From positions 19,742 through 83,741 of the IMG/VR virus record IMGVR_UViG_3300005985_000001: a DNA stretch of 64,000 bases. One strand, given 5' to 3'. Of the stretch, positions 2,163-63,626 are shown one piece after another (within the stretch, counting starts at the first letter, position 1; the number at the start of each line of letters is the position of its first letter). The notes under the pieces are model-generated. The model was not told the DNA's origin. It did not search any database and saw only the letters and a program-made list of their open reading frames with translations. The translations under genes were made by a program, and so were the position numbers. The DNA comes from a virus. Its lineage: Duplodnaviria; Caudoviricetes.

Positions 2163-2428
2163 CAGTCCTCGTCTCCCTCGGAACGTTCCGTCGCTTGGTA
2201 AATCTTTTCATAGGTAAACAACCGAAGCACTTCTGGGTCACATTCATCGACGTTCTTAATCTCGTTCCAGAACGCATCTCCGGTATCCACATCTTCATAA
2301 AGGGCAGCTTCACCTTCAGGGTCTTCCTGCATCGCCTTGATGAATTCATAGGCATCATCCGCAGTCTCGGCTTCGACTAGGGTATACCCGTAGATCGTCC
2401 ATTCGTGCCGCACGTTAAAGATGGGCAT
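2162..2428 (-). CDS. acidic VEAE-motif paralog 1
   Basis: MPIFNVRHEWTIYGYTLVEAETADDAYE; GGAG RBS. Confidence 0.7.
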   Translation of the reverse strand: MPIFNVRHEWTIYGYTLVEAETADDAYEFIKAMQEDPEGEAALYEDVDTGDAFWNEIKNVDECDPEVLRLFTYEKIYQATERSEGDED

Positions 2429-2639
2429 CGTCAACTCCATCCAAATCAGATTCCAATTCGACAATTTCATCTACGCCGCGATAGTGCATATCGTGCATGT
2501 CCAGTGAATCCAGCAAGTTTAGGTACTCGCCATTGACTGCCATATCATCGACCAGTTCATGCGCATCATCTACGCTCTCTGCTTCCACGTCGATCTCGCC
2601 GTAGACGGTGTAAGTGAAGGTCACTTTGTAGTAGTTCAT
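2415..2639 (-). CDS. acidic VEAE-motif paralog 2
   Basis: MNYYKVTFTYTVYGEIDVEAESVDDAHE. Confidence 0.75.
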   Translation of the reverse strand: MNYYKVTFTYTVYGEIDVEAESVDDAHELVDDMAVNGEYLNLLDSLDMHDMHYRGVDEIVELESDLDGVDDAHL

Positions 2640-2833
2640 TTGGTCTCCTCACTGATAAATGTACTTCCTGCGAACTGTGTTTCTATCGGAACTGGATTGA
2701 CCAATGCAGCACGGATGTTTTCTTCAGTCATCCAATCCAGCGCATCGTAGGCATCATCCAGAGTTTCTGCCTCAATCAAAAGATTGCTGGTCAAGCTAAA
2801 GTCAATTGAAAACCGATATTTAGGCATCTTCAT
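2636..2833 (-). CDS. acidic VEAE-motif paralog 3
   Basis: MPKYRFSIDFSLTSNLLIEAETLDDAYD. Confidence 0.7.
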   Translation of the reverse strand: MKMPKYRFSIDFSLTSNLLIEAETLDDAYDALDWMTEENIRAALVNPVPIETQFAGSTFISEETK

Positions 2834-3284
2834 CCTCCAGTTCCAGAGCTTCGCGCTCTTCGTCAGTCAGTAAAAGCTCTGGGTAGTTTTGCTCGATTTG
2901 CCACTCCAATCCGACCCAGAAGGCTTCTGACATCGCCTCACCGTAAATCCTGTCTGCGAGATGATGCATATCTGAATCACTGAGTGCAGCAACCCGTTTC
3001 TCGCTGCACCAGGGTTCATCTTCATTAGGTCCCAGTAAATCATTCCGATGTAGATGTGTCACCGGGAACCACTGCTGGATGATCTCCGCATCGCCAGCTT
3101 CTTCACTGGCATAACGAAGCTCGTACTCCTGATACCCGCCAAAAACCATCATCTGGGCAAGTTGCTCTGGATCGCAGATTTCGGCGCATCGTTCGGTTGC
3201 TTCGAAGAGTACATCACCATTGAGACTGTTGTAAATCACGGTGCCACGTTCCCAGTCAAATTTCGCAGCAAGTACGATTCGCAT
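2820..3284 (-). CDS. hypothetical protein
   Basis: AAGGAGAA RBS before MRIVLAAK; the longer start in the track overlaps the next gene. Confidence 0.7.
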   Translation of the reverse strand: MRIVLAAKFDWERGTVIYNSLNGDVLFEATERCAEICDPEQLAQMMVFGGYQEYELRYASEEAGDAEIIQQWFPVTHLHRNDLLGPNEDEPWCSEKRVAALSDSDMHHLADRIYGEAMSEAFWVGLEWQIEQNYPELLLTDEEREALELEDEDA

Positions 3285-3469
3285 TAATATTCTCCTTCTT
3301 CTAAAACAGCGACTCGTCGTTCCAGATCCTTGATCCGCTGATCGAGTGGCACGACAATGCCATCGATGATGTCGCTGATTTCGGCATAGGTGTCTGAATC
3401 CACGCCGAGTCCAGCTTCTCGCATCAGCATGATGATGTAGTGTTGCAGGAGATCCGTTGGCGTAAGCAT
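3284..3469 (-). CDS. small coiled-coil protein
   Basis: 61-aa ORF ending LDQRIKDLERRVAVLEE; GAGG RBS. Confidence 0.65.
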   Translation of the reverse strand: MLTPTDLLQHYIIMLMREAGLGVDSDTYAEISDIIDGIVVPLDQRIKDLERRVAVLEEGEY

Positions 3470-3472
3470 AAC

Positions 3473-4573
3473 TTAACCTCTTTTCTGGCGAATAACCGGC
3501 ATAATCAGGGCAAGTCCACGAGAAGCGACCGGACGCATGACAATCGCTTCGTTCCACTGGTTGCCTTTAATGCGAATAACATCCTCGGTAAAGCTGTTCA
3601 GCACATCCTGCATATATTTCAGGTTGACATCGACGGTGAGACTTTCGCCAGTGAAGTCACTTTCCATCTGGTCTTCCAGATCCCCACGTTCTGGAGATAC
3701 GCCATAGATTTCCACGCCCTGCTCGGTACTGACGATCTTACTGGCAAGATTGTCATCTTTGGCGAAGATTGCTGCACGCTTCAGGGCTTTCAATAACTGC
3801 TTACGGTCCAGATCCAGTTCAGTGACATAACTCTTGGGAATAATTGCTTCGAAGTCTGGATACTTCCCTTCAAGCAACTGGCTCACCAGTACCATATCGC
3901 CAACCATGAAGTAAGCTTTTTCCTGATAGAGGTCAAAGTAAATGGTCTCGGCATCCCCTCGCGCAGCTTCTTTCCAGATTCGTGCGGGAATCACCGCTTC
4001 GTATTCAACCCCTTCAATGTTCTCAATGTGGACATGGCACTGAGCCAACCGATACCCATCTGAAGCTTCCAGCTTCATGATGTTGTTTTTGATGACGACA
4101 TGAACGCCAGTCAGGATTGGACGTGCCTGTTCTCTGGCAACCGCATAGATCACTTCACGGACCGCTTCCCGGAACGTTCCGCCATCGATTAAAATGGCAT
4201 ATTCGGTAATCGTTGGAATTGGCGGAAACTCTTTCGCGGGCTTCCCCTTGAAACGATTCTTTGAAGTGCCATTAAGAACAGTCGTGACTTCAACCCCTTC
4301 ATCCAGATCAAAATCGACCCGTTCTGGTGAGAGCAAATGCACGACTTCTTTGAACGTTTTGGCATGAAGGGTGGTTGAACCTTCACGATCTACTTTGGCT
4401 TTAATCCGGCTCATAATCGTGAGTTCTAGGTCTGTACCCACAAGCCAAACGCCATCACCTTCGGTTTGCACCAAGATGTTTGCCAGAATCGGCAAACGGG
4501 GCTTGGTCTCCACTGCCGCAGATGCCTGCTTGAGTGCTGTTTCCAACGTATCTTGCAAAACCGAGAATTTCAT
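3473..4573 (-). CDS. dnaN: DNA polymerase III beta sliding clamp
   Basis: 366 aa; LPILANIL, GTDLE, RPILTGV, ASDGYRLA, EGKYPDFEAIIP, VNLKYMQD motifs typical of DnaN. Confidence 0.95.
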   Translation of the reverse strand: MKFSVLQDTLETALKQASAAVETKPRLPILANILVQTEGDGVWLVGTDLELTIMSRIKAKVDREGSTTLHAKTFKEVVHLLSPERVDFDLDEGVEVTTVLNGTSKNRFKGKPAKEFPPIPTITEYAILIDGGTFREAVREVIYAVAREQARPILTGVHVVIKNNIMKLEASDGYRLAQCHVHIENIEGVEYEAVIPARIWKEAARGDAETIYFDLYQEKAYFMVGDMVLVSQLLEGKYPDFEAIIPKSYVTELDLDRKQLLKALKRAAIFAKDDNLASKIVSTEQGVEIYGVSPERGDLEDQMESDFTGESLTVDVNLKYMQDVLNSFTEDVIRIKGNQWNEAIVMRPVASRGLALIMPVIRQKRG

Positions 4574-5774: not shown

Positions 5775-5824
5775 CGAGCATTCTCCTTCACTTGTTTCGC
5801 TGGTGGTGTCAGCGAGAAAACGAA

Positions 5825-6448: not shown

Positions 6449-6901
6449 CTATTTCCCCTTGAGTTTGTCTAAGAACACGGTGAAATCATCCATTGTGACC
6501 ACTGGATAGAGCCAGTAGTGCCGTGCCTTGATACGATCATCGACCCAATCGACCCAGTAGCGCATCTGCTCCATTTCTGGGGTCATATCACTGTGATCAT
6601 CGTAGAAAATACAGGGCATCAAGGGTGCAATCTTGACATGGTTATTCATGAAGAAATAGCCATGTTCCAGTACGCGAAACCGGTAAAGATTGTGATCCTC
6701 AAACACCTGCAATTCGACGGTATTGTTCTCCAGCCAGTGCATGAGTTGCTTAATATCTTCTGCGCTGACGGAACGTTCCGAAGGTTGTAGAACATCAGCC
6801 TTCAGAAGCGGATACTCATCGACATACAACTGACGCAAGTTCTGACTGAATGTCCACCAGTCTTTTCGCTCGATGGTGTAGAGTGTGAGACGTGTACCCA
6901 T
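6449..6901 (-). CDS. hypothetical protein
   Basis: 150-aa ORF, TAATG coupling, AAGGAGAA RBS. Confidence 0.75.
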   Translation of the reverse strand: MGTRLTLYTIERKDWWTFSQNLRQLYVDEYPLLKADVLQPSERSVSAEDIKQLMHWLENNTVELQVFEDHNLYRFRVLEHGYFFMNNHVKIAPLMPCIFYDDHSDMTPEMEQMRYWVDWVDDRIKARHYWLYPVVTMDDFTVFLDKLKGK

Positions 6902-7308: not shown

Positions 7309-7694
7309 TAGTTATTCTCTCCTTTTTCGCTGTGATCTTCGTTAAAATCAGTAGACCGAGCGACACTCAGATTTTCCCAGCCACCTGCAAGCTCGATCAG
7401 CCACTCCGGGTAGATTTCATCTACGAACTGAATATCATTCTCGCGGTCTTCGGTTTCGATCATGTCCTGCAACCACTCGCGAAGGGTGCAGTTGCCTTCG
7501 GTGAGACGTTCTAGGAGTTCATTAGGAACACCTGTGAGGAGATTTACGCAAAGTACGGCTCGTTTCATATCTGCTTTTGCGCGATTCTGTTCACCGGGAC
7601 GAAACTGAGCCAATGCGATCACATCGGAACGTTCTGCCGCAATATGAAAACCACTGTAGGCTGTTACCCAGGGTTCGGGAGTGTGACTATTCAT
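7308..7694 (-). CDS. HTPxPW-family paralog 1
   Basis: MNSHTPEPW...AVLCVNLLTG. Confidence 0.75.
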   Translation of the reverse strand: MNSHTPEPWVTAYSGFHIAAERSDVIALAQFRPGEQNRAKADMKRAVLCVNLLTGVPNELLERLTEGNCTLREWLQDMIETEDRENDIQFVDEIYPEWLIELAGGWENLSVARSTDFNEDHSEKGENN

Positions 7695-8116
7695 TAGCTA
7701 TTGCCCTCCATGAATAGGTTGAACTTGTTGATGAGTTTCTGAAGATCGCCAAATGCCTGAAGCTGTTCATTAGTGAATCCGGCACAGAAATTCACACATG
7801 CTGCGGAACGTTCCGCGTTTGCCAGTGCCGACCCATACTGACGGTAGCCAGCCGGGTAATCGCTGCTGTAGACACCTTGTAGGTTACGCTTACGTTCTTC
7901 GAAGTCGTATTCCGACCACTGTGATTCAACCACTTGTGTCACCGGTTCTTCAAAGGTGGCAATTTCCACCGGCTGCATGAACTCTTCTTCACGGTCATAT
8001 TCAATCCGCACAGGAACAGGGCGAATCCCAACCGTCCGATCTCCTGGCTCATAGGGCATGGCATACCAAGGTTCGGGGGTCCAGTCTTCAATTCTCGGCA
8101 TTATGATCCTCCGCAA
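7694..8116 (-). CDS. HTPxPW-family paralog 2
   Basis: WTPEPW...ANAERSAACVNFCAG. Confidence 0.75.
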   Translation of the reverse strand: MRRIIMPRIEDWTPEPWYAMPYEPGDRTVGIRPVPVRIEYDREEEFMQPVEIATFEEPVTQVVESQWSEYDFEERKRNLQGVYSSDYPAGYRQYGSALANAERSAACVNFCAGFTNEQLQAFGDLQKLINKFNLFMEGNS

Positions 8117-9470: not shown

Positions 9471-9752
9471 TCAAGAAGCATCTTCGTCATCTTCTTCTTC
9501 TGGAGCCGGAACATTCCGCCAATAGAGAATCGTGCGTAAGCCAAGTGCGTCTTCTTCTGTATGACGAAGTGCATCTGCAATGGTCATAACTTCATCATCA
9601 GTGGTTGCCATAGCTAACATGTCTGCAATAAAAACCCAGGGATTGTCAACGGCAACACCTAGACATTCATTGCCATACATTCCTCGCCCAGAGTAACTAC
9701 GAGTGTCATATCCGGCTGATTGAATCAATTCAACAAACTGCTCGTTATTCAT
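9471..9752 (-). CDS. conserved phage protein (YSGRGMYG..C motif)
   Basis: SYSGRGMYGNECLGV is a motif recalled from small phage proteins. Confidence 0.75.
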   Translation of the reverse strand: MNNEQFVELIQSAGYDTRSYSGRGMYGNECLGVAVDNPWVFIADMLAMATTDDEVMTIADALRHTEEDALGLRTILYWRNVPAPEEEDDEDAS

Positions 9753-12753: not shown

Positions 12754-12779
12754 TCCTGACCTTTCTTCAGAACGTTCCG

Positions 12780-14939: not shown

Positions 14940-15251
14940 TTAAAAGAGATGACTGGCAACCTCCAGACTAATAAACGCACGATTGCGTGTCGGCGAGAAA
15001 TGATAATCGATGCCCATAATGAAGGGATCCAGTCCATCACTGGGAATCCGTGCAGAGAGCAAGGCTTTATCCAATTCTTCTTCAATGTACTCGAAGTTCA
15101 TTTGTTCCGGTTCCAGATCCACCCACAGAAACATCCAGCGCCGGGCGTAAAAGCCTTTGCTGTCATAGTGCGGATTGCTGGATACAACCAGGTGAAACTT
15201 CGGGATGCGATTGCACAAGTCGGAACGTTCCGCTTCGGTGAGGTTAAGCAT
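14940..15251 (-). CDS. hypothetical protein
   Basis: 103-aa ORF, GGAG RBS. Confidence 0.7.
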   Translation of the reverse strand: MLNLTEAERSDLCNRIPKFHLVVSSNPHYDSKGFYARRWMFLWVDLEPEQMNFEYIEEELDKALLSARIPSDGLDPFIMGIDYHFSPTRNRAFISLEVASHLF

Positions 15252-16754: not shown

Positions 16755-16777
16755 AGGGGCAGGATCATCCTGCCCCT
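16755..16777 (-). terminator. intrinsic terminator after ssb
   Basis: AGGGGCAGGAT/ATCCTGCCCCT hairpin followed by TTTATTTT on the minus strand. Confidence 0.75.
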
Positions 16778-16798
16778 GTTGACGGAACGTTCCGTAAG

Positions 16799-17224
16799 TT
16801 AGAACTGCACCTCTTCGACCACTGATTCCTGAATGGCTTCTGCACCTGCCTGCTCAGTGCGATCCTTCCATTCCTTCACATAGACTTCTTCGACACGAAT
16901 GGTCACATCGCTGGCGTTATCGCCATTATTGGTGGTATAGCAGCGCGATCCCATGACTTTGGCAACCACTGTGACAGACTTCCAGCGGCGAAGAATCTTG
17001 TCCAGCCCTTCGGCGCGAGTGCCGTAGACCGCACAGTTGAACCACACCGGCTGCTTGACGACCGTGCCATCTTCTTTGGTGTAGTCCTGATTGTTGCAGA
17101 CCGAGAAATTGAGCACAGCATTCCCGTTCTGCATATAGGTCAGGTCTTTGATCTTGCCCAGATTGCCATCGAAAACGAACAGGTTCAGATTACGGATTGC
17201 GACTTCGTGATTGTTGTTAGCCAT
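16799..17224 (-). CDS. ssb: single-stranded DNA-binding protein
   Basis: GNLGK...Y.QNG.AV.NFSV...WFNCAVYG..AE OB-fold pattern; acidic tail ending in F. Confidence 0.9.
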   Translation of the reverse strand: MANNNHEVAIRNLNLFVFDGNLGKIKDLTYMQNGNAVLNFSVCNNQDYTKEDGTVVKQPVWFNCAVYGTRAEGLDKILRRWKSVTVVAKVMGSRCYTTNNGDNASDVTIRVEEVYVKEWKDRTEQAGAEAIQESVVEEVQF

Positions 17225-18185: not shown

Positions 18186-18296
18186 TGGGCCTCTCCTTCT
18201 CTCCTGTGTGGTGCAGGATGTCTATTACTTGTTCGAGAACTGCAAGACTCTGGAATACAAATTGCTATCGTTTCTCGGATTTTACGGAACGTTCCG

Positions 18297-18936: not shown

Positions 18937-19926
18937 CTACTCGGAACGTTCCGGGCGTAGTTTGGTAAACACCAGTACCTGTTTATGTTCCAGGTAGCTG
19001 CTTTTCCACTCTTGGTCAGTCAAAATAGTTTCGACCAAGAGCCATTGGGCATGAGGGCAGAATCCGGCTTGATACAGCCCATTAGGACCATAGAACTCTG
19101 CGACTTGAGGCATGGGATAGTAGAAAATCTGATTGACCTGATCGTTGATTTCCATTGTTTCTTTTACCTTTCCCAGCGCCAGTAAATGACGTTTTTGCCT
19201 TGATGGTCTTCGTAGAAACCCATCTTGAACATAATCTTGCGCAGCCAGCGACGACGATTGGTTGAGATCACAAACATCTTAGGCATCGTACAATCGCGGT
19301 AGACAATCACGCGATTTTCGCCGAATGTCCCTTCGTAAATCATGATCACATCATGCATTCTACTACTCCTTGTTTATCCAGATCAAGACGAACGGGGGAT
19401 TAGTTCTCTGTGTTAAAGAACCTGCTCAAGCGTTGAACCAAGTCATACAAATGCTCATCCCGATACCGATACGGAATCTTCAAACTCTTGCCAAGTTCGT
19501 TTTCCGTGAAATGGCTGTTGCTGTGATGCCCCCAGCATCTCCCATCGGAATAGTAGTATCCGATCTCTACGCCATCCAGATAGATCGGATACCGTTTGTC
19601 CATGCCCACTGCTTTTGTGGGCGTGCCATGTGTGATTTCCATAGATTTATCCTCCAAATTAGAGAACGGATGATTAGTCTCTCTTCCTTCTCCCTCCCCG
19701 CCTACCGGTCCATCAACGCGGTTTCAATCTGGGCATAGGCACGAGAAGCAGCCTGATACAGCGGATGATCTTCCGGGTAAAGCGTCTGCACGTTACGCAG
19801 CACTTCAATGAAGGCATGGGTGGCGGAAATCACCACCTGGAGGGCATCCAGACGGGTACTGAGATCCATCTGTTCATCGTAGAGCAGGGCATACAGATTG
19901 AGGATATTCTCGGTGATGGTGAACAT
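18937..19926 (-). other. four consecutive small hypothetical CDSs (18937-19155, 19164-19358, 19400-19657, 19702-19926)
   Basis: Head-to-tail ORFs, most with purine-rich RBS. Confidence 0.65.
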
Positions 19927-20179: not shown

Positions 20180-20294
20180 GTTACCTCCGTTACATTTCTT
20201 CCCTCATCCTATGGTCTAACCCCCCCCCTAAATACACATTTCTTCCCGTGAGGTGTTACCGAGGTTACAGGACTGCGGAACGTTCCGCGCATGG

Positions 20295-20504
20295 TTAGGC
20301 ATTGAGTTTTGAGTTGATCCAGACTTCTGCGCCAATGACATAGAAAGGCGCATGGGTATCCAGTACCCATCCATTAACCTGAAGCATGTCGTGGATCTGG
20401 GCAAGGCGCTTCTCAGATGCTTCGTAGTAGCGAGGTTTTTCGTTAGTCCGCTGAAAAGAGACGGTGAGGAATCCCCATGACCAAAAGATAATGCGTTCGA
20501 GCAT
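20295..20504 (-). CDS. hypothetical protein
   Basis: 69-aa ORF, GAAGGAGAA RBS. Confidence 0.7.
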   Translation of the reverse strand: MLERIIFWSWGFLTVSFQRTNEKPRYYEASEKRLAQIHDMLQVNGWVLDTHAPFYVIGAEVWINSKLNA

Positions 20505-20548
20505 CGTGTATTCTCCTTCAAGGTCTGTGTGGTGCAGACGATGTACCT

Positions 20549-21065: not shown

Positions 21066-22023
21066 CCACCTTCCCGAAGGTCACGAGACCGGATAACTTG
21101 GCTAACTCACTGCGATAGGCTTTGTCCATCTTGGTGATCACCAGATCAAGGAACTTCTGCACGCCTTCTGCATCCTTCGCACGAGTGAAGATCTCGAAGG
21201 CAGGCAGGGTACGCCCCAGCAGCAGCCAGGCTTCCAACTGGTACTTGTTGACGATGCTGTTGACATTGATGTGGGTCAGTCGATGATACTGAACAATCTG
21301 ATTCTCGTTCAGTCCGGTGAAATCGCGCTTGGAGACCAATTGCTTCTGGTCGTCAGATGCTTCACCACGCGCAACCGCTTTTAATGCGGCATTGAACTTG
21401 TCTGTATATTCATTCCAGTCATTAGTGCGCTTCTCAATCGCCACGTTCACCGGATGCGCGTTGCCGGTGGTGAGACCGATCAACTGCCCGAAGTCATTGA
21501 ACTGCTTGCTGGCATAGTGCGCGGTGTAGTACACCTGCTTGTCGATCTCGTTGCGACGACCGACCACTGCCCGATCCTGATCGCCTTCCAGGTCCAGCAG
21601 GTTGAGGATACGCACATCTGCACTCAGTTCCGCAGCAAAGGCACGATGAATGCCTTCGCTATGATAAGCCAGCGCACGGGCAATCTGATCCATCTGGATG
21701 TTGTTCTGGTACACCACTGGTACCCCCGCTTTGCGGCTGCCCTGGGTGGTGCGGGTCAGCCCGATCATGCCCAGCGTCAGCAGTTCTTCGAAATGAGCAC
21801 GCACGCTCATGGCGTCAATCTGTTCTTGGGTGTAGCTCAGCCGAGCCGGAAGCGCGGAACGTTCCGCCCAGGTACGGATCGACGGGTTGACAGGCGCAAC
21901 TTCGGTCACGGGGGTTTCGGTGATAACTGCTTCCATATTCACATTCTCCTCATTGATAACCGGCGCAGGGGTGTTACCGTTCATGCCAAACAGGGTGTTC
22001 TTGCCAGTACGACGATTAGCCAT
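21052..22023 (-). CDS. 323-aa protein of unknown function
   Basis: Long ORF, GAAGGAGAA RBS; no motif recognised. Confidence 0.8.
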   Translation of the reverse strand: MANRRTGKNTLFGMNGNTPAPVINEENVNMEAVITETPVTEVAPVNPSIRTWAERSALPARLSYTQEQIDAMSVRAHFEELLTLGMIGLTRTTQGSRKAGVPVVYQNNIQMDQIARALAYHSEGIHRAFAAELSADVRILNLLDLEGDQDRAVVGRRNEIDKQVYYTAHYASKQFNDFGQLIGLTTGNAHPVNVAIEKRTNDWNEYTDKFNAALKAVARGEASDDQKQLVSKRDFTGLNENQIVQYHRLTHINVNSIVNKYQLEAWLLLGRTLPAFEIFTRAKDAEGVQKFLDLVITKMDKAYRSELAKLSGLVTFGKVDDAE

Positions 22024-27493: not shown

Positions 27494-27670
27494 ATGAATC
27501 TCATTTCATGGCAGGATAAGGCATGGATGTGGTTTGTCTGGAAATTGCCCCGCACCTTGATTTATTGGGCAGTCAATTTATGCCTGGGCAAGAATACTAC
27601 GTGGATTTTACGCCCGCAGACAGTCAATGACGGAACGTTCCGTGAGGGATTAGGATCGATTTTGCCCTAA
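27494..27670 (+). pseudogene. probable chimeric gene remnant
   Basis: MNLISWQDKAWMWFVWKLPRTLIYWA; an overlapping frame reads QFMPGQEYYVDFTPADSQ*. Confidence 0.35.
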
Positions 27671-27676
27671 TCCCTC

Positions 27677-27704
27677 TTGACAATTCAAAATAAGGCATTA
27701 CGAT
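27677..27704 (+). promoter_or_regulatory. sigma70-like promoter
   Basis: TTGACA-16 nt-TACGAT, preceded by an 11-bp hairpin (27644-27676). Confidence 0.5.
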
Positions 27705-32174: not shown

Positions 32175-32199
32175 AGGGTGAGCCGAAGCTCACCCTTTT
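32175..32199 (+). terminator. intrinsic terminator after the capsid gene
   Basis: AGGGTGAGC-CGAA-GCTCACCCT-TTT. Confidence 0.85.
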
Positions 32200-32221
32200 C
32201 TTCTTACGGAACGTTCCGTCG

Positions 32222-39300: not shown

Positions 39301-42300
39301 GCAGTGGCGTTTTCGAGCATTGAGAATATCACCGGCGCATCAGCACTCGACCGCGCTGCTAACAAGGACACTGCTCTGGAATACTTGCAGCAGGTGGGAC
39401 AGGACAAGGGGCTGTATCGCACAGGTGCACGATTCTGGAACCGCTCAACCGGCAAAACTCTGACCGGACCAGAATCTCAATTCCAGGAAATTTTTAAACA
39501 ACTTTCTAGTATTGGTTCTAACCTGGAAGGTGAGCCGGTGCTGGGTATTAGCCCAGATCAGGAATACCGGCAAAAACTAGCGCCTGCGATTGCGACGGCA
39601 ATGCTCACGCGCGACGAGATGAAACGCCTGGCGGATTCTGGCGAACTGGATCAGCGCATCAACCAGATGGCAGATATGCTTACTCAGCGCCGTGCCACTG
39701 GAGAAGACATCAGCACCCAGCTTTTGCCACTGACCGGCGCTGCAAAATTTGCGGAGTGGGGTGAAGGCAACGGTTCTGGATTGGGTTCACAGTCCAGTAT
39801 TGGACAGTGGATTACTGGACAGATTGCCAATAACTATCGCTTGTCACAACGCAAAGATAAAAGTGGCAATAAGATGGTTGACGCCAACGGGAAACCCGTC
39901 ATTATGGGTGAGTTCCCGACCGACTGGGGCGCACAGTATGAGAATGCAGGCAAGATTGCCCAGAGCATACAAGAATTTAATACCAATCTCGGCAAGCGGC
40001 GAGGGAATAATACACTGGAACAGGCGGTTCGCTCAGTAGCCGGTGGCGGCGAACGTCTGAAAAACTTCCTCGGTGGTATGTTCCCTGGACTGGCGCAGGC
40101 TACACAGCGATTCGCTGTTGCACCGGTTGATGATCCAAGTTTGTACAATCCAGGCGCTTACCTGACCGCCTCACAGTGGACCAGTGGCACCGGAGTAGAC
40201 GATGAACTGCTGCGTCTGGTGAATTTGAACACCACCTCAGCGGAACGTTCCGGCGTAATTGCCGAACTGATGAAGTCCGGTGCATTCCAGGAGTATCGTC
40301 CCTACAGCGGTCCTGCCAATAACGCGGATAAAGTCGGGACGCGCATGGAGAATGTGCTGACCGGCAAACTGGCAGCCCCTGAGAACCAACAGATTCTTAT
40401 GGCGAATGCTCGGCGTCGTATGGGCAACTCTCGGGCGGACTTCGGGATGCGCGACAGTGCAGGCAACCTGGTAGTCGGTGACATCAAGACCAAGAGCCGC
40501 ACGGGGCTGATGAGTGACCTTCTGGGTCCGTCTCTGCGTGGCGACATCATGGGTCAGGTCTCCAACTACATCACCGGTACTCGTATCGACGGCGGCGAAC
40601 GTCAGACCGGCGATTACGGCGTGGTCGTAGGCGGGATTCGTCTTAGCGACAACCCGAACATGCCGGAATCTGAAGTCGCGGCTGGGTTCGAGCAGGCGCA
40701 CGATCTGGCGATGCAGATGTACAGTAACAGCCAGATGCCGACTTCATGGGCAAATGCAGGCTGGACGCAGGAACGATGGGAGTCTCATCGTCAAGCCTCG
40801 ATGCAGGCCATGCAGGACATTTACGCCGCTTCGGGGATGAAAGTGGCTGCGCGGGTTGTGACCGGTGAAGAAGCAGAACAGTTCCTCAATGCCCGTCAGG
40901 GCGACATCTACAATCTGAAGTCGATTCGTCCTGAGCATCGTGCTGCGGACATGGCGGGTCGTGCGCAGCAAATCATGGCGCTGCGTGGTGGCGGCAATAT
41001 CAGTGGTTCTGGAGTAGGCTCTCCGCCCCCTCCAAACATGCCTGGCGCACCTCCGGCTCCACCTTCGGGCGACGATGGCTATGTTCCGTCCAGTGCCAGT
41101 GGAAGCGGCGGCTCGGGTGGCGGCGGCTCAGTGGTCAACAATAACACTGTCTACCGGATGTCCAACCCACGCATCACATCCAAGCAGATTGCCGAAGCAG
41201 AGATCGCACTGGAACATCTTGGCGAAGCCGCGAAGACCTTTGCAACCGGATCTAAAGAAGCCCGCGAAGAGATGCTCAAGCACTACGATGCTTTGAAGAC
41301 TGTCTCTTCATACCTGAGTGACGTGGAGCGGGCACAGCGTTCGCCGGACGGCTTCAATACCAACAATCCTAACTATCTTCTGCTTCAGCAGCGATTGGGC
41401 AGCGGGCGTGCAGGTGGCTCGGCGTTTGGCACCATCAACAATGCCGTTTATGATCCTGCATTGAGCAATGCGGCTTATGAAGCCCAGCTTGCCAATATGC
41501 GAGACACCGGCGAAGAGCCGCCGCAATCTCGGCTCCAGCGCATGATGCGCGGCGGGCAGGATCTCGCTGAACGTATCATCAAAACGCAGGGCTTGTTCCA
41601 TGCAAAGCTGGCGTTCAATATGTTTGCAGGCTCGGCGATTGGCGCAGCCGATAACTGGCAGGATCAGCAAGCTGCACAGGGAATGATGCTGGCACAAGCC
41701 GGTCAGTTGACGTTCAATCAACTGATGGGCAGTCAATTCGGAACCATGCAGCGTCGTAACATCGCCCTTCAGGAAGGCGGGCTTGCCTATGGGCAACAGG
41801 TCTACAGCGCCTATGCGCCGTTGATCAACTTCGCAGCCGGTCCCGACACTGCGAAAGGTCCGCTGGGCGCAATGGCAGGGATTGGCGTGCCTGCGTTTGG
41901 CGTTGCGGCGGCTGCGACGACACTTACTGGCAGTCCTCTCTTTGGTGCTGTAGCGGGTGGTGTCACAGCCGGTATCGGCACGCTTGGCTATATGTCATCG
42001 AATGCCGTAAACTATCAGGCAGTCGGCGCATTTAATCAGCAGCGCAATGCCGGGATGGGCTTACAGGCAATGTTCCAGAATACAGCCGGAGCAGCCGGGG
42101 CTTTCTGGAATGATCTGGGGCGCGGGTTGGGTCTTGTTTCCGACGAAGACTACCAGCGGTATCTGGATGCGCCTCAGTTCAACGACCTGATTCAACGTTA
42201 TTCACGCGGCGAAGTTGGGCGTCAGGAAGCAATTGCTCAAGCCGAAGCCATGCGTTTCAATGGTGGCGACCTGATGGCAGGTGGCTTGGAGGCCTGGGTG

Positions 42301-44843: not shown

Positions 44844-44931
44844 CTTTTCCGAGAACTAATCTCCATTCATTGCAAGTCTAGCACAGACTCTATTCCTCGA
44901 ACAATTTACTTTCCTCACGGAACATTCCGTC

Positions 44932-47981: not shown

Positions 47982-49093
47982 TGGCGACGCTTCGTTTCAG
48001 TGATTACCGAGCCAGCAACTATGAATTTCCACTGACCCTCGAAGAGGTGTTTCGGCTCTATACGGCATTTTCCAATCTGCACGACACCTCATTTGACAGT
48101 ATTGTAGACATCACGAGCGTCACTGTGACCGATGTGAGCAGTGGAGGCTTCACAGGCGTGGGCGGGTATTCCGTTGCATCGACCAGTTTTGAAGTCCAGT
48201 ACCACAAAGCAGATCATGATCAGTGGGTGATGATTACCAGCAGCGAAGGCTATGGAAGCGTTGAGGTTGGAACGGACGATACTGGGCGTCCAGTGGTGCG
48301 GCGAAACAATGTCATCGTTCAACTTCTTCCTTTGACTACCCCTGAAGAAGCGAATGTACGTTTAGTGTTTCGGCAATTACAGACTCTGGACAATGAAAAC
48401 CAGATCTGGGCAACGGTGGCGCTTTATATGAATGAAGCCCTGATCACGACCTGGCAGCAGTTACTCAATACTGCCTTCTCCAACTTTAGAGTACAGTTCA
48501 ATGCCCGAAACAGTGAAACCCGTACCTACACCAATATCCGCATCCCAGAACTGACCGAAATTGCGGAGTTTGGCACTCTTGATCCGGGTGCAAATCCGAT
48601 GAATGGCTTACAGCAGACCATCGAAGGACGCTATCTCAAGTTCTTCGTGCGGTTTGACGGAACGTTCCGCGCCTGGCGTGTAAAAGCGGTGACTAATAAA
48701 CATACTTTTGACCCAGGTGAGTTTTTTATTACCTCTCTAGGAAATGATCTTACCGACTTTGCAACCCATGTTCGCATGATGGGTGCTTACATCTGGAGTG
48801 AAGCGATTGACGAAGCAGGCGCAGCCAAATGGGGGCATCGTTTTCAGGAACTGAATAACTCGATGCTGCTCACCAAGTTCGAGTGTTTCCGAGAAGCCAG
48901 CAATACGCTCAAGCGTATGCAGGAAAATGCGTTTACTGAGAGTGCAGAAGTGCCCTATGTCATTTTTCTGGAGCCTGAAGATCGCGTGGCAACGGATGGC
49001 GATTGGCTGGTAACAGCTTACAGTCTCTCGCTGGCGGTTGCTGAACTCAGCCAACAGCTTGATCTGCGTTTTTATGCATGGGGTGAAGTCTAA
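47981..49093 (+). CDS. minor tail protein
   Basis: TAATG coupling; position. Confidence 0.7.
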   Translation: MATLRFSDYRASNYEFPLTLEEVFRLYTAFSNLHDTSFDSIVDITSVTVTDVSSGGFTGVGGYSVASTSFEVQYHKADHDQWVMITSSEGYGSVEVGTDDTGRPVVRRNNVIVQLLPLTTPEEANVRLVFRQLQTLDNENQIWATVALYMNEALITTWQQLLNTAFSNFRVQFNARNSETRTYTNIRIPELTEIAEFGTLDPGANPMNGLQQTIEGRYLKFFVRFDGTFRAWRVKAVTNKHTFDPGEFFITSLGNDLTDFATHVRMMGAYIWSEAIDEAGAAKWGHRFQELNNSMLLTKFECFREASNTLKRMQENAFTESAEVPYVIFLEPEDRVATDGDWLVTAYSLSLAVAELSQQLDLRFYAWGEV

Positions 49094-53528: not shown

Positions 53529-53550
53529 GTATTCACACATTTTCGTAATG

Positions 53551-53561
53551 TGTGCTATACT
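53551..53561 (+). promoter_or_regulatory. extended -10 promoter TGTGCTATACT
   Basis: TGn-TATACT in an intergenic gap; related to 44875-44885 and 63513-63523. Confidence 0.6.
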
Positions 53562-53661
53562 AAGAAGTATCCCCTAGACATACCTACAACTGAAGTACCC
53601 TTTCTGCTCGGAACGTTCCGAGCAATCCTCGTATTTTGGTTTCTCGCAAGGAGCACTTCTC

Positions 53662-57360: not shown

Positions 57361-57497
57361 ACTTCCAGTAGCGTATATCCGCAAACACGGCCTCGTTGTG
57401 AATGGGATCGTCTGGATCAAGGATGGTCCTAACTACACCTGCCTCAACCTCACTCCTGAAGAACTTGAAGACAAACTGACGGAACGTTCCGACTCAC

Positions 57498-59786
57498 ATG
57501 GGTCTGATTAATCCCCATTTTGAAGCCTTCAAACCTGACTACAACGAAGATCAGGTCGTAGAGATTGCTCTACGGATGCGGGCATCGTTCGCAGTCATCA
57601 TGAATGATGCGAAGGCAGCCAAGAAGCTCCAAGATGCAGGCATCATCCCGATCTTCCGCGTGTTGAATGCCTGGTTCAATGACGATTCGGGGCATGACCA
57701 CTTTGATGCAAAGGTGTATCTGGAGTTCATGGTCGCAGCAGCGCGAGCAGCAGGCTGTGATGTCACCCGAATGATCTTCTACTACATCAACGAAGCAGGC
57801 AATGCCTCGATGCCCAAGCTCAAGGAGCAGCTTCGCCTCGCCATTGAAGCCGCGAAGCAACTGGGCATCAAGCTCTGCGTCCTCAATATTGCCATTTGGA
57901 ATTGGACGCTTGAAGACTGGGAATACATCGAAGACGAACTCGATGAAGTGGCCTATGTCGGCTTCCATGAGGGCTACTACAACGGACAGGAAACCTTAGA
58001 CCTGGCAGAAGCAGCCGGTTCGATTGGTCGCTTCGAGTATGTTCTGAAACGCTTTCATCTTCAGGGTCGCGTGATCATCACCGAGTTCGCCGGATCACTC
58101 ACGGCGCATGACGGCTGGCGGGCACTCTACAAAGGCAACTGGCAGTTGTGGGCGCAGCGCATCCGCGAAGCCATGATCGCCTTCTACGCCCGCTACAACA
58201 TCCCGATCTGTCTTTTCACCGCATATTCGTGGCGGCGCGACTTTGACTATTACCGAGAGATTGAGTTTCAGCAGAAGATTGCCGAACTCAATCTCCAGTT
58301 TATTTATCTTGAGGAACCTTTGATGGTCAACATGCGAGATCTGGTGTGTCCGAGTAATGGCCCGCTTCGTAAGCTGAACTCCGGCGAGATCGTACAAACG
58401 GTCTGGAATGGGAGTTTTGGCTACCAATACAAGAACAGCCAGTGGGAACAGTTCTGCATCAAGACGATGGCTGGTGTTGATTGGGTTTGCCGTCTGATGG
58501 ACATTAGTGAGTATCTGGCACCTCGTCAGTCGGTTTATGCCTTGTTTGAGGATAAATCGCTTACCAAGCCCGGTGGTGCATGGGTACCGGTCAATGCCGA
58601 AGTCGGCAAGGTCTACACCCGTGATGTGTGGGTGCAGGAATACTGGCGGGATGGCAGATTGATCCCAGAAGGCACGCTGGGCAGCAAAACCGGACGAGAT
58701 GTGACCTACTTCAAAGTGGTCAAGGTGCATCCCACTTGGGCAACTTTTGAAGGGGTTCAGGTACAGAACGTTGCCGAGTGCGTGTATGGACATGATTACA
58801 CTGCGGTCGTGGCTGCCAATGCGGAACGTTCCGCTGGCGTAAAAGAGCGTTATTTTTACTCTGGCGGCTTAGTCGGTTTCATCGACTACAACTTTACACC
58901 TCCGAGTCAAACGGTGCTCACGCCCTCACGGGATTGGCCCAATTCTCGTCCTGCTCCAATTCAACTCCCCTGGTGGAATCCTCAAATGACAACCCCAACC
59001 ATCCCTGCTGGTCAAACACCATATACTGCCAAAGCAATCGATGCTGTGAAACTCCGCCCTGCGCCTGGGTTAGGCACTAGCAATTTGTTCAACCCAGCCA
59101 TTGTGATCCCTAAAGGCAGTACAGTTACTCTATTTGAGACTCCAGCCATTACGGATACACCGGATGAATGGACGTGGGTACGCTGCGAGAGTGTGCTTGG
59201 CAACGGCTTCGCGGCTCGTGAATTCTTCGAGCGCGTACAATCGGTGCCAGTGATGGACTTTGAGATTGCTGTCCCTTATTTTTCGCAGATCGATGCCAAG
59301 CTTGCAATCAATGACTGTTTTCCTGCCTGCGGCACTTCACTGATTCACTACGAATACCCGCGACATGGGATTGCTCGCCCTTCACTCATTAGCGTAGATG
59401 ACCTTACACGAGATAGCGATCTTATGAGGGTAGATGATGGTTTAGGCTGTTCTGAAGGCGTTACCCTTCTCAAGGGATACGGACTTAACACTATTTGGTA
59501 TAAGGCACTAACTGTAGATGATTTACCTCAGTTTATTGAAGATGGAAAGCCGCCAATATTACTGGTGAACTCCAAATATATTGGCTATACCGCAGAATTC
59601 GGACACTTCATCCTGGCGCTTGGATATAAGAAAGATGCTGGCGGCAAGGTGACACATATTAAATATCACGATCCTTATTCTCTAGGGGCAAATCAAATCC
59701 AGACTGCTACTAATATGAAAAATGCCATGAATGACGTTGGTAAGTTTACTCCGCATGGGCCTGGGCAAGCGGTTATCCTGACATGA
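57498..59786 (+). CDS. modular endolysin: GH-A-like TIM barrel, unknown domain, SH3b, C39-like peptidase
   Basis: INEA/FHEGY/IITEFAG; VKLRPAPG..TW; VPYFSQ..NDC..C..GHFIL..YHDP. Confidence 0.75.
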   Translation: MGLINPHFEAFKPDYNEDQVVEIALRMRASFAVIMNDAKAAKKLQDAGIIPIFRVLNAWFNDDSGHDHFDAKVYLEFMVAAARAAGCDVTRMIFYYINEAGNASMPKLKEQLRLAIEAAKQLGIKLCVLNIAIWNWTLEDWEYIEDELDEVAYVGFHEGYYNGQETLDLAEAAGSIGRFEYVLKRFHLQGRVIITEFAGSLTAHDGWRALYKGNWQLWAQRIREAMIAFYARYNIPICLFTAYSWRRDFDYYREIEFQQKIAELNLQFIYLEEPLMVNMRDLVCPSNGPLRKLNSGEIVQTVWNGSFGYQYKNSQWEQFCIKTMAGVDWVCRLMDISEYLAPRQSVYALFEDKSLTKPGGAWVPVNAEVGKVYTRDVWVQEYWRDGRLIPEGTLGSKTGRDVTYFKVVKVHPTWATFEGVQVQNVAECVYGHDYTAVVAANAERSAGVKERYFYSGGLVGFIDYNFTPPSQTVLTPSRDWPNSRPAPIQLPWWNPQMTTPTIPAGQTPYTAKAIDAVKLRPAPGLGTSNLFNPAIVIPKGSTVTLFETPAITDTPDEWTWVRCESVLGNGFAAREFFERVQSVPVMDFEIAVPYFSQIDAKLAINDCFPACGTSLIHYEYPRHGIARPSLISVDDLTRDSDLMRVDDGLGCSEGVTLLKGYGLNTIWYKALTVDDLPQFIEDGKPPILLVNSKYIGYTAEFGHFILALGYKKDAGGKVTHIKYHDPYSLGANQIQTATNMKNAMNDVGKFTPHGPGQAVILT

Positions 59787-59889: not shown

Positions 59890-60624
59890 ATGAGTAACCG
59901 AGTGATCGGCATCCTCCCGGCTGCTGGGCTTGGCACAAGACTTGGGCTTCCTTTTGCCAAAGAATTATTGCCGATTAAGAGCCATTGGGATGCACTAAAT
60001 TATAAGCAGGTTGCAGTGACTGTGCTGGAAACCTCTCTGGAACAACTTTCAGCCGCAGGCGTCGAAGAAGCAGTGGTGGTCATTCGTCCTGAGAAGCAGA
60101 TGATCTGTGAGTATCTGAAGAACCGCAGACGTGGCGTAAATATCCGCTACGTCGAGCAGAAGACCATGTACAGCCGCGAGGGACTGCCGGATGCGATCAT
60201 GGCTGCCTATGACATCGCCAAAGACTACGACCTCTGTGTGATGCTGATGCCGGATGTGTACTTCACCGATGAAATGGTGGTCGTAGACCTCCTGGCAGCA
60301 CTCACGGAACGTTCCGATGCGATTGGCGCGGTGAGTACCTGGCTGACCGTCGAACCCTGGCGCTTTGGCGTGGTCAATTCGATCAACTGGGAAGTGACTT
60401 CAGTGGTTGATAAGCCGGATGCCAACAAGCCGATGTACCACTGGGGTGCAGTTGCTTTCCGTCCCGCATTCTGGCCCTACATCCTCGAAGAACAGCAGAC
60501 GCTTTCCAATGCCCTGAACCGTGCAGCGGTGAAAGGTTTGCTGGCAGTGCCCGCTCGTGGAGAGTATCTCGATCTTGGACTTCCTCAGAGTTATTTGGAT
60601 GCGGTTGCACGGGTGAACTCATGA
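59890..60624 (+). CDS. sugar-1-phosphate nucleotidyltransferase (RmlA-like)
   Basis: GILPAAGLGTRL...KELLP, GLPDAI, DKP, YLDLG.PQSY. Confidence 0.9.
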   Translation: MSNRVIGILPAAGLGTRLGLPFAKELLPIKSHWDALNYKQVAVTVLETSLEQLSAAGVEEAVVVIRPEKQMICEYLKNRRRGVNIRYVEQKTMYSREGLPDAIMAAYDIAKDYDLCVMLMPDVYFTDEMVVVDLLAALTERSDAIGAVSTWLTVEPWRFGVVNSINWEVTSVVDKPDANKPMYHWGAVAFRPAFWPYILEEQQTLSNALNRAAVKGLLAVPARGEYLDLGLPQSYLDAVARVNS

Positions 60625-61358: not shown

Positions 61359-61363
61359 TTCGT

Positions 61364-62056
61364 ATGATACTGACCAGGCGTAAGCTGCATCCGATGACCG
61401 AAGTGATTGCAGTCATGACCTACAACCAGCCGGAGATGGTGTGGGCACTCATGCAGGAACTCAGTCCTTATCTCCTGGTGATTGATAATGGTTCGACTGT
61501 ACCCATCCCCAACACACGTATTCGAGTTCCAGAGAACCGCTATTTTGCAGGGGGCTGGAATTACGCCATGCAGCAGATTGACGCCGACTGGGTCGCCATG
61601 CTGAACGACGACATCACCGGTATCACGGTCGGGATGATCAGCGACTTGATTGATACTGCGATAGCACATGACTATGCTGCGATCTCGCCCGCCTTTAACT
61701 CTCCGCATCCGCATATGCAGCCGCAAGGCAAAGGACTCAGACGTGTTCACTCGATTGATTGGGTAGCGACTATTGTTCGCAAAAAAGCCTGGGATGATGT
61801 GGGTGGCTTCAATGAAGCCTTTCCTGGCTATGGATCGGATCTTGAGTGGGCATATCGTGCCAAGCAAAAAGGCTATCGCCTGGCTGTCGATGATCGCTAC
61901 TGTATTCACCACATCGGCGGCGCAGCAGCAATTGCTGGTGGTACGCAGCACATTCAGGGCAATGTCACATCGATGAACGAAGCGTTCAATCGGCTCTATT
62001 CTGTCCCGGACTGGATGGCATTTACCCAGCAGTATCTAATGAAGGATTTCTCATGA
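61364..62056 (+). CDS. GT2 glycosyltransferase
   Basis: LLVIDNGS, FAGGWN, MLNDD, VGGFNEAFPGYGSD..W..RA. Confidence 0.88.
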   Translation: MILTRRKLHPMTEVIAVMTYNQPEMVWALMQELSPYLLVIDNGSTVPIPNTRIRVPENRYFAGGWNYAMQQIDADWVAMLNDDITGITVGMISDLIDTAIAHDYAAISPAFNSPHPHMQPQGKGLRRVHSIDWVATIVRKKAWDDVGGFNEAFPGYGSDLEWAYRAKQKGYRLAVDDRYCIHHIGGAAAIAGGTQHIQGNVTSMNEAFNRLYSVPDWMAFTQQYLMKDFS

Positions 62057-62505
62057 CCGATCTTCCAGTCAGTTTAGACATTGGCGCAATTCCGTATCAG
62101 GTCGAAGTCGTAGATGGATTGCATGTACTCAATGAGGATGGCAGTAAAGATCAACTGAACGGTTATCATCTGGAGCACATTGCGCGGATTCAACTCCGAG
62201 AGGATTTGTCCCCTGCAATCAAGCGCGTTGTGTTTATGCATGAGCTTATCCATGCCCTGCTCTGTCAGCGTGGGCACAAATACCCTCATGAAGAGAACAT
62301 GATCGAAGGCTTGTCTTATGGTCTGGTCGATCTGTTTCAGCGTAACCCCGATTTACTCCCCTATCTCATGAATATCCCCGAAGGACAATCCCCGAATGAA
62401 CTGGCAACAACTCCCGGACCCGATCAAGCAGGAAGCTCTGACCCAGTACCGCAAGAACCGGTCCCTGAACAATCCTGCGCTTGCAGACATTGCCACAGAC
62501 CATAA
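62053..62505 (+). CDS. HExxH metallopeptidase-like phage protein
   Basis: VFMHELIHALL...EE. Confidence 0.75.
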   Translation: MTDLPVSLDIGAIPYQVEVVDGLHVLNEDGSKDQLNGYHLEHIARIQLREDLSPAIKRVVFMHELIHALLCQRGHKYPHEENMIEGLSYGLVDLFQRNPDLLPYLMNIPEGQSPNELATTPGPDQAGSSDPVPQEPVPEQSCACRHCHRP

Positions 62506-63397
62506 CATCAATATAGGTACATTGCTTCGACGCTTACAGGAGATGGATCGCTCAGAACGGGCGAACTATCTGGCACTCACTGAAGGGATTCAGCTTCCTA
62601 CGCAATCTGAGCGTCAATGGAATGATTGTCTGGTTATTGAAGATGAGAACGCCATTGTCATCAGCGACATTGAAAGCCCGGATGCGGATCTAGTTTGGCT
62701 AGAAACCGTGATTCTGATGGGTATCAAACACAATATTCGTCGCCTGATTATTCTTGGAGATACCAGCGCAGGCGATCAGCCCGGACTAGCGACGCATCTC
62801 CTCACCTGGTTTGAGTCCGGGCAGGTGGATTTCAAGAGTTCGATTGGGATGCTGCGACGGATGATCCAGATCTTTCTTATCTTTTTTGATGAGATTGACA
62901 TCATCTCCGGTAACCACGACCAGCGTATTGCCAAAGCCACAGGTGGACAGATCGATCTCGGAACGTTCCTTGAGGACTTCGGAACCCGAGTGCGCTTCAG
63001 TCGCTATCGCCGGATGTATATGCGGACTTCACGCGGGCTGATTGCCATGTACCATCAAGCGAACTTCTCGCAGAATGGTGTGGCACTCGCGCAGAAAATG
63101 TACGATGCCGAACCCGGCTTGAATCGCCAAAAGCCCTACGCGGTAATTATTACCCATATCCATCACTGGGGCTGCGGCAAAAGCAAGGATAATCTCGCGG
63201 AAGTGTATTCACTGGGCTGCTCACGCGATCCGAACCTGACCCAGTACATCAACGAAACTCCCAGTACCTTTGCCAAGTGGTCGCAGAGTCTCATTATCAT
63301 AGAAGATGGCTATTTGAGAAATCTGGAGCGGGACAGCACCAACTGGAAAAAGGAACTCGGCGAATATGCGGAGAAAGCGAGAATCTGTGCTGCATGA
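62396..63397 (+). CDS. calcineurin-like metallophosphoesterase
   Basis: ISDIE, ILGD, SGNHD, YH, THIH motifs. Confidence 0.85.
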   Translation: MNWQQLPDPIKQEALTQYRKNRSLNNPALADIATDHNINIGTLLRRLQEMDRSERANYLALTEGIQLPTQSERQWNDCLVIEDENAIVISDIESPDADLVWLETVILMGIKHNIRRLIILGDTSAGDQPGLATHLLTWFESGQVDFKSSIGMLRRMIQIFLIFFDEIDIISGNHDQRIAKATGGQIDLGTFLEDFGTRVRFSRYRRMYMRTSRGLIAMYHQANFSQNGVALAQKMYDAEPGLNRQKPYAVIITHIHHWGCGKSKDNLAEVYSLGCSRDPNLTQYINETPSTFAKWSQSLIIIEDGYLRNLERDSTNWKKELGEYAEKARICAA

Positions 63398-63591
63398 TGG
63401 TAAGAGACGCGATGAGCACTTTCATGTAGAATACAAGTGCTGTTCCGTTTTGAGCGAAAAACCATCACAAATGTCCACTTTTTGCGGATTTCTCGCTCAG
63501 AATTAGAATACTTGTGCTATCATAATAGCACGTCGCGCCGATCAACTTCACCACAAAGTTCCGGCGCATGAAGGAGAATACCCTCAATAAA

Positions 63592-63626
63592 ACAGGTCTC
63601 GGAACGTTCCGAGACCTGTGCTTTTT
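63592..63626 (+). terminator. 28-bp perfect palindrome followed by a U-tract
   Basis: ACAGGTCTCGGAACGTTCCGAGACCTGT then GCTTTTT. Confidence 0.7.

Follow-up and report, generated by a model that had tools for sequence, protein, structure and literature searches.

A 12-bp palindrome dispersed through a phage genome and replaced by other iterated motifs in related lineages

Dispersed dyad repeats have been known in lytic phages since 2015, when those of the Cluster O mycobacteriophages came to light, and they still have no assigned function. In these phages, 17-bp repeats of the form TGTTCGG-NNN-CCGAACA (34 copies in Corndog) are found in roughly equal thirds in intergenic regions, near gene 5′ ends and within genes; they are unoriented, and a dimeric protein is predicted to bind them, their function being unknown (PMC4351075). 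The stoperators of Cluster A mycobacteriophages form a second dispersed system, with up to ~30 sites on both genome arms, often at gene junctions, where binding blocks the elongating RNA polymerase (PMC9283540, PMC6550527). Stoperators are asymmetric 13–14-mers oriented with transcription and are recognized by a monomeric two-domain repressor of temperate phages (PMC9283540, PMC6550527); the motif varies from subcluster to subcluster in step with the repressor (PMC6550527). Here we analyzed a 64-kb stretch of DNA from a tailed phage (IMG/VR record IMGVR_UViG_3300005985_000001; hereafter, the window), which contains 21 exact copies of CGGAACGTTCCG, a 12-bp perfect palindrome, and followed this element through the rest of the phage genome and into related phages.

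Of the described systems, the Cluster O repeats appear to be the closest phenomenon. In both cases, a lytic-looking siphovirus genome of ~70–80 kb that has no integrase or partition system contains about 30 dispersed, nearly invariant dyad copies, whose placement is mixed and without orientation. Reading each site in the direction of transcription, we placed ~13 of the 28 copies in the complete genome of the window’s phage inside genes and 3 in the last 4–6 codons of a gene, whereas ~12 are intergenic or abut a stop codon. The sequence itself differs, CGGAACGTTCCG having no spacer, and no link between the two phage groups is known, none having been sought. The present case adds a motif-replacement series with positional anchors: the motif is replaced lineage by lineage at conserved positions, which has not been reported for Cluster O. 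Stoperators resemble the palindrome in their number, their genome-wide spread and the differences in motif between related lineages. However, the element described here is a perfect palindrome with about half of its copies in genes, no integrase or partition genes were found in the phage, and an asymmetric, oriented motif occurs in only one of its relatives. An initial annotation of the window, made from its sequence, had likened the palindrome to the chromosomal matS, SlmA, Noc and parS sites. These are poor fits, and the phage analogues above are closer; in particular, sites of the parS/ParB or KorB type differ in that the phage encodes no ParB_N-domain protein (PF02195).

Enrichment of the palindrome in genes and at gene boundaries

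The window corresponds to bases 19742–83741 of an 83,741-bp virus record, the ends of which overlap by 123 bp, yielding a complete circular assembly of 83,618 bp that is rated 100% complete. Positions given below are those of the window unless marked as genome positions. A minus-strand gene arm extends up to ~44.2 kb of the genome and encodes AAA_24, DnaG, DnaB, RecA, SSB (ssb, 16799–17224, minus strand) and DnaN, along with many small open reading frames (ORFs) without an assigned role. The plus-strand arm that follows encodes terminase, an SPP1-type portal, capsid and adaptor proteins, a glycosyltransferase, tail proteins and a 2767-aa tape measure protein. Searching 44 ORFs of the phage against Pfam and PHROGs returned mostly no matches.

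All 21 exact copies listed for the window in the initial annotation are present, and none arose in 100 dinucleotide-preserving shuffles of the window. Extending the count to the rest of the phage, as that annotation had proposed, raised it to 28 exact copies, accompanied by 8 one-mismatch variants, on both arms. The core GAACGTTC occurs 33 times in the genome and is embedded in the full 12-mer in 28 of these cases. We also shuffled synonymous codons, a further check that had been proposed, preserving every protein and leaving intergenic DNA unchanged. The shuffled genomes retained a mean of 8.5 copies (maximum 11), because only the intergenic copies remain, compared with 28 observed. The palindrome is thus enriched and under selection at the DNA level, and its gene-internal copies offer a clean case of such selection overriding protein sequence. 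Outside the 12 bp, the flanks show only a weak preference for T at position −3; the unit is therefore a site of 12 bp rather than a mobile repeat of greater length. REP- and MITE-like elements are extragenic units of 20–40 bp with conserved flanks, while here no flank is conserved and half of the copies lie in frame within genes. A one-sided TCA/TGA extension noted initially does exist, but it is weak (8 of 56 half-sites).

Gene-internal copies are mostly read in the E-R-S frame. The ERS and GTF peptides that had been reported, including those in dnaN and the tape measure gene, were recovered on translation, the frames being ERS, GTFR and RNVP. At gene boundaries, a stop codon is immediately adjacent to six or seven copies, and five lie 0–6 nt 5′ of an ATG without a ribosome-binding site (genome positions 2651, 5003, 8781, 51948 and 77221). 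Overall, an ORF boundary falls within 25 nt of 10 of the 28 site centers, compared with 3.6 expected (p 0.0015). The two strongest terminator predictions in a scan of positions 1–60000, one after ssb (16777–16755) and one after the capsid gene (32175–32196), each adjoin a copy.

The copies are also spaced more evenly than random (coefficient of variation 0.71 versus 0.95, p 0.04), with a minimum distance of 588 bp. Fairly even spacing over both arms would suit signals for DNA transactions, such as Chi-like protection or hotspots of recombination that serve the RecA pathway of the phage, sites for nicking or for the restart of replication, or sites of packaging or condensation. The phage encodes RecA, SSB, DnaB, DnaG and DnaN as well as a GIY-YIG-like (T5orf172) protein, and a palindrome would be functional in either orientation. 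However, known Chi sites are asymmetric and only 5–8 nt long, known phage nick sites are asymmetric as well, and the crowding of copies at gene boundaries, terminators and start codons would be left unexplained. We therefore consider signals of this kind very unlikely.

Motif replacement in related phages

Relatives of the phage were collected as TerL homologues in public assemblies, on contigs of 76–87 kb, and their motifs were determined from the regions fetched. Other collections yielded none. TerL had no protein-level match among 50,697 deposited phage records, a collection from which the window’s own records are possibly omitted and in which the presence of Cluster O is not confirmed. A single-protein scan of IMG/VR found no relatives, and a 14-mer scan of the same database gave only single chance matches in unrelated contigs. 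Several of the TerL relatives (P0010, P0014, P0018, P0053 and P0055) are 720–907 aa long and carry an intein domain (PF14890).

Relatives with TerL identities of 54–65% retain the core GGAACGTTCC at 0.18–0.5 copies per kb, with 11 copies in 21 kb of L117 (65%), 7 in 22 kb of L118 (60%) and 3 in 17 kb of L119 (54%). The recA region of the phage with 54% identity (L259) holds six exact copies of the 12-mer in 21 kb, one copy with a single mismatch and two bare cores. In these close relatives, the outer base is either C or A. Relatives at 34–53% identity are devoid of the GAACGTTC core, and each carries another iterated motif, at 0.2–0.7 copies per kb: CAGAATATTCTG in L264 (53%), GAACCGGTTC with GAAACGGTTC variants at 16 sites in L265 (48%), GGAAC-S-GTTCC at 10 sites in L266 (47%), ATTCCTAGGAAT in L267 (40%), AGAACCGGTTCT with 21 cores in 54 kb in G003 (38%), the asymmetric CAGAACCGAMTATG in 17 copies in the complete 80-kb genome G004 (35%), and GGGAA-W-TTCCC in 12 copies in 22 kb in G005 (34%). 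The density over all these loci ranges from 0.18 to ~0.7 per kb. Overall, seven distinct motif types were found in the ~10 lineages sampled, varying in half-site, in spacing (0, 1 or 2 central bases) and in symmetry, and no clear motif was seen in L245 and L249. Dyad symmetry is perfect in every motif-bearing lineage except G004, whose motif has its left half in common with that of G003. In L245 (16.7 kb, TerL 39%), GCCGCAAA occurs 11 times and may be an asymmetric iterated motif of that lineage’s own.

Some of the sites are conserved in position. Within the GGAACGTTCC clade, the site 5′ of the adaptor gene is kept in L117, and L118 has a degenerate version of it at the apex of a hairpin. In the glycosyltransferase gene, L117 and L118 have the identical core at the homologous codons, with neighboring codons differing synonymously. 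A site in the portal gene, which in the window’s phage is a one-mismatch variant, is conserved as well; the other sites of this clade are lineage-specific. In five lineages (the window’s phage, G004, G005, L265 and L266), the lineage’s own motif is found at or just past the 3′ end of ssb. Furthermore, G003 and G005 carry different motifs, each its own, in the same alignment columns of one glycosyltransferase loop, where they encode ENRF and LGNSH, respectively. Apparent positional matches of the L119 sites proved to be artefacts of short alignments created by the motif itself.

A position that is kept while its sequence is swapped reflects selection on DNA at the expense of protein sequence. 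By analogy with stoperators and their repressors, this is the pattern that would be expected for a co-evolving reader and its sites (PMC6550527). The motif-swap series and its anchors (the ssb 3′ end and the glycosyltransferase loop) allow site replacement to be traced, and since the seven motif types form a natural series with anchor positions, the reader should be findable by co-variation across full genomes.

In our judgment, there is about an even chance that the 12-mer represents the sites of a symmetric (dimeric), co-evolving and probably phage-encoded DNA-binding protein with a genome-wide role. Protein binding, the dimeric state of the reader, its identity and its function are all features that we infer from the patterns in the DNA. 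The 12-mer would be a high-affinity site of such a sequence-specific dimer, evolving together with it. Selection would maintain about one site per 3 kb on both genome arms, setting sites where possible into short gaps at gene or operon boundaries, beside stops, terminators and starts, and otherwise into tolerant codons. When the specificity of the reader shifted during the evolution of the family, the entire set of sites would have been rewritten in half-site, spacing and even symmetry. The likely role would be exerted genome-wide and not promoter by promoter, possibly by controlling or blocking transcription at the boundaries of its units in the manner of stoperators, by organizing or marking the chromosome, or both.

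Host sequences, candidate readers and rival roles

The initial annotation had offered two options, binding sites of a dimeric protein or a host-derived highly iterated palindrome. The first fits the lineage specificity, the symmetry, the DNA-level selection and the swapping of the motif in relatives; the second gained no support from our scans of bacterial sequences, which showed operators and tandem arrays. The HIP1-type elements of cyanobacteria are exact, gene-blind and lineage-specific; a host-type palindrome, or an uptake-like sequence, could have been copied into the phage through mutation, repair or methylation biases of its host. We scanned a collection holding one genome per prokaryote species (185,579 genomes) for two decamers 40–70 nt apart and obtained more than 120 loci among the matches listed, from many phyla. 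The loci comprised tandem arrays and operator pairs on either side of promoters, and none of the matches listed was dispersed. Among 241 million metagenome records, two 12-mers 300–330 nt apart occurred in four contigs, all of them tandem arrays. We estimated that a host carrying the palindrome at phage-like density would contribute ~10 such pairs per assembled genome; as only tandem arrays were found in these records, a host iterated palindrome is disfavored. Moreover, the single Chloroflexota genome checked held two copies of the decamer, no C5 or N4/N6 DNA methyltransferase domain was found in the phage, and the conservation of specific intergenic positions would be unexpected from a mutational process. 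An origin of this kind is, in our view, highly improbable. Tandem arrays of the same palindrome in bacterial and metagenome contigs (L227, L232, L263 and L261) include one of 24 copies at a 34-nt period and one of 8 at a 43-nt period, among others.

The bacterial operator pairs deserve attention in their own right. In many phyla (loci L120–L239), promoter-like sequences next to LacI-family regulators and genes of sugar catabolism lie between two GGAACGTTCC palindromes at a distance of 40–70 nt, and such pairs are a widespread operator type in bacteria. A LacI-family regulator adjoins the decamer in 5 of 10 bacterial loci sampled. Published operators of the LacI-family regulators CelR and CebR likewise include, beside TGGGAGCGCTCCCA, variants that contain the GGAACGTTCC core (PMC3377646). 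The decamer is thus an ordinary operator of dimeric LacI-family regulators in bacteria, and a helix-turn-helix (HTH) dimer can therefore read it. The phage sites have the same decamer core with its central CG. Yet in bacteria the decamers are paired around promoters beside regulator genes, with one or two per regulated operon, whereas the phage has 28 dispersed copies with different flanks and no LacI-type domain of its own (PF00356 was absent at E up to 10).

These similarities raise the possibility that the phage exploits a host protein as reader, be it a LacI-type regulator, a nucleoid protein or a component of a defense or restriction system, in which case motif differences would track hosts. 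In its favor are the pairs flanking promoters by LacI-family regulators in many phyla (PMC3377646), the lack of a LacI-type domain in the phage, and the fact that the phage’s own proteins offer candidate readers only. However, 28 sites, set even into conserved proteins, would be a heavy investment for sensing one host regulator. Half-site, spacing and symmetry also differ among phages that have most of their structural genes in common, sometimes at the same positions, and a motif that changes in such a setting looks like one partner of a private co-evolving pair. We therefore consider a host reader unlikely.

Turning to the phage itself, the initial annotation was correct in finding no cognate protein in the window, as the recognizable sequence-specific DNA-binding domains lie outside it, beside recA. 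Directly downstream of recA, two adjoining ORFs of the LexA-N winged-helix type encode proteins of 69 aa (genome 6368–6577; Pfam E 6e-12; best solved match Thermotoga LexA, E 8e-7) and 80 aa (genome 6136–6378), both matching phrog_3502. Within the ORFs scanned and seven whole-genome family searches, these are the only recognizable domains of this kind. Among 5.8 billion proteins, none was a word-sharing homologue of the 69-aa protein. Two further ORFs, an unclassified one of 72 aa that lies between this pair and recA (genome 6626–6844) and one of 292 aa with a weak HTH at its end, complete the four recognizable DNA-binding candidates of the phage. The 72-aa ORF is also present in L259 (~40% identity); its structural model comprises helices and a beta hairpin (pLDDT 71) and gave no significant structural match. 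L259 also shares the 292-aa ORF (292/300 aa). LexA-type homologues occur twice in G003, and in G004 we found only a weak match to a local profile. The LexA-N-type proteins next to recA are thus weak candidate readers, and that their family supplies the reader is possible but doubtful.

The Gram-positive-type LexA (SOS) box has the form GAAC-N4-GTTC, and the phage palindrome, with its GAAC/GTTC half-sites and with LexA-N-type winged-helix domains encoded beside recA, bears some resemblance to this system. However, the spacer is 0 here (1 or 2 in relatives) instead of 4, and the sites do not lie in front of SOS genes. The phage proteins also consist only of N-terminal-type domains of 69 and 80 aa, without the S24 peptidase/dimerization domain.

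Several observations weigh against the proposal that the palindrome is read by a phage-encoded dimer. About three quarters of the proteome is without annotation. Curated LexA-type profiles found no match in the complete genome G004, and LexA-type genes are absent from the syntenic recA neighborhood of L259, which has the identical 12-mer. The sites are nearly invariant, unlike the usual degenerate sites of transcription factors, and those immediately 5′ of terminators or inside long genes have no obvious initiation role. We detected no tyrosine integrase, serine recombinase, ParB (PF02195) or Cro/CI-type HTH in the phage genome, which leaves room for a novel repressor; with no integrase, recombinase or ParB found, a classical immunity-repressor role is therefore unlikely. 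Lastly, the motif of G004 is asymmetric, 15 of the 17 copies point in the direction of transcription, and they typically precede start codons by 30–50 nt, as would also be the case for a phage promoter or an element of the leader RNA.

In the promoter interpretation, a co-evolving RNA polymerase encoded by the phage would recognize the motif, possibly as a small hairpin, as its promoter or start signal. Beyond the asymmetry and orientation of the G004 motif, a ribosome-binding site lies between that motif and the start codon, and the motif sometimes directly follows a terminator. The G003 motif lies just 5′ of ribosome-binding sites, the five copies 0–6 nt before an ATG in the window’s phage would give leaderless transcripts, and a giant tape measure protein is a conserved feature of the family. 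Yet the perfect dyad symmetry of all motif lineages but G004 would leave such a signal without a direction. About half of the copies in the window’s phage lie within genes, several follow a stop codon and precede a terminator, where initiation would be pointless, and the distance from copy to ATG ranges from 0 to more than 40 nt. We regard this interpretation, too, as unlikely. A related comparison is offered by the start-associated sequences of Cluster K mycobacteriophages, short conserved repeats just before many start codons that are asymmetric and include the ribosome-binding site (PMC4351075, PMC3203893). A start codon similarly follows 0–15 nt after five of the copies in the window’s phage and after several of those in L117, G003 and G005, but the present element is a palindrome, includes no ribosome-binding site and is mostly found away from starts.

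The motif could also act in mRNA, as a short hairpin or protein site that controls translation, coupling or processing at cistron boundaries. Many copies do sit at stop/start junctions in the place of a ribosome-binding site, the G004 motif lies in sense orientation, and two copies in the window’s phage and one in L118 form the apex of a longer hairpin. An RNA stem, however, would be expected to show compensatory changes, and the sequence is instead invariant and exactly self-complementary. The stems would be only 4–5 bp long, copies deep in long genes have no boundary to act on, and the odd central base is at most weakly oriented (sense in 8 of 10 sites in L266 and 3 of 6 in G005). Such an RNA element seems to us quite unlikely.

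The reading of the palindrome as the site set of a co-evolving DNA-binding protein can be developed into a more specific scenario, which we put forward tentatively and think rather less probable than the general case. These apparently lytic ~80-kb phages may each maintain a private-address system, with one palindrome of their own per 2–5 kb, even in conserved proteins. It would be read by a fast-diversifying small winged-helix protein, LexA-N-like and of the phrog_3502 type, or by another unannotated protein. The reader would silence, organize or mark the chromosome and block cross-regulation by co-infecting relatives, and repeated switches in its specificity would have forced the rewriting of all sites.

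Individual copies and other features of the phages

Two exact copies in the window close a gene: one occupies the last 6 codons of a minus-strand gene, directly 5′ of the next gene’s ribosome-binding site (2179–2190), and the other forms the final 4 codons of a 72-aa ORF, with the next ribosome-binding site following after a few nt (18942–18953). Within genes, the E-R-S frame is used in a 150-aa ORF (6769–6780), in a 140-aa ORF (7804–7815) and twice in the tape measure gene (39080–39091 and 40241–40252), while the copies in dnaN (4170–4181), the glycosyltransferase gene (33889–33900) and a 393-aa ORF (48658–48669) are read G-T-F-R. Further internal copies are found at about codons 7–10 of a 103-aa ORF (15221–15232), at about codons 24–27 of a 323-aa ORF conserved in the GGAACGTTCC clade (21855–21866), within a 762-aa ORF (58822–58833) and within a 244-aa ORF (60305–60316). 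The 762-aa ORF is also preceded by a copy (57480–57491), 6 nt 5′ of its ATG at 57498, with no ribosome-binding site between them.

Between genes, one copy (16783–16794) begins 4 nt past the stop codon of ssb and is followed, after a few nt more, by the terminator hairpin at 16777–16755, and another lies 7 nt past a TAA stop (20276–20287). Two abut a TGA stop, one that of the upstream gene (18285–18296) and one followed by a hairpin and a promoter-like TTGACA-16-TACGAT at 27677–27704 (27631–27642). The copy at 32207–32218 is placed between the capsid-gene terminator (32175–32196) and the adaptor ATG at 32222, again with no ribosome-binding site between. The remaining two exact copies are embedded in longer perfect palindromes, both of which had been described correctly. 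The 20-bp palindrome (53605–53624; exact copy at 53609–53620) is intergenic, 48 nt downstream of a promoter-like TTCACA-18-TG-TATACT (53532–53561), the best promoter-like site with an extended −10, and ~40 nt before the ATG at 53662. The 28-bp palindrome (63592–63619) has the exact copy at its apex (63600–63611) and is followed by a T run, resembling a terminator.

The seven near-matches reported initially all exist, although one starts at 12768 and not at 12769, and the one in the tape measure gene (37864–37875) has two mismatches, compared with one in the other six. The latter are CGGAACGTTCTG at 7625–7636, CGGAACATTCCG at 9507–9518 and again at 44918–44929, just 5′ of an ORF starting at 44932, CAGAACGTTCCG at 12768–12779, CGGAACGTTCCT at 62959–62970, and a variant within the portal gene (29586–29597), where L117 has the GGAACGTTCC core at the homologous position.

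Some features of the structural genes were also evident. The tape measure gene is very long, spanning 36331–44634 (2767 aa) in the window and encoding 2756–3778 aa in the relatives L265–L267. In L117 (16232–18478) and L118 (16483–18965), the capsid gene is split by an oppositely oriented ORF, with faint HTH and sigma-70 region 4 matches in L118. The ORF resembles an inserted intron or homing endonuclease, and the window’s phage has no counterpart of it.

A second repeated element consists of 24 short hairpins with a CACCAC loop, distributed over positions 793–63560, 21 of them on the transcribed strand of their own arm (for example, at genome 2039–2057, 11672–11690 and 44146–44164). About 20 lie directly 5′ of a GAAGGAGA-type ribosome-binding site. 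These hairpins show no consistent link to the palindrome, most not being near any copy; in the one at genome 11672–11690, the stem equals the right half of the palindrome. Finally, a multi-copy ORF family is present at genome positions 20361–20537, 32813–33343 and 39699–39920 and has HNH/NUMOD4 matches in relatives. At least six scattered copies of this family occur in G004, and its members are probably homing endonucleases.

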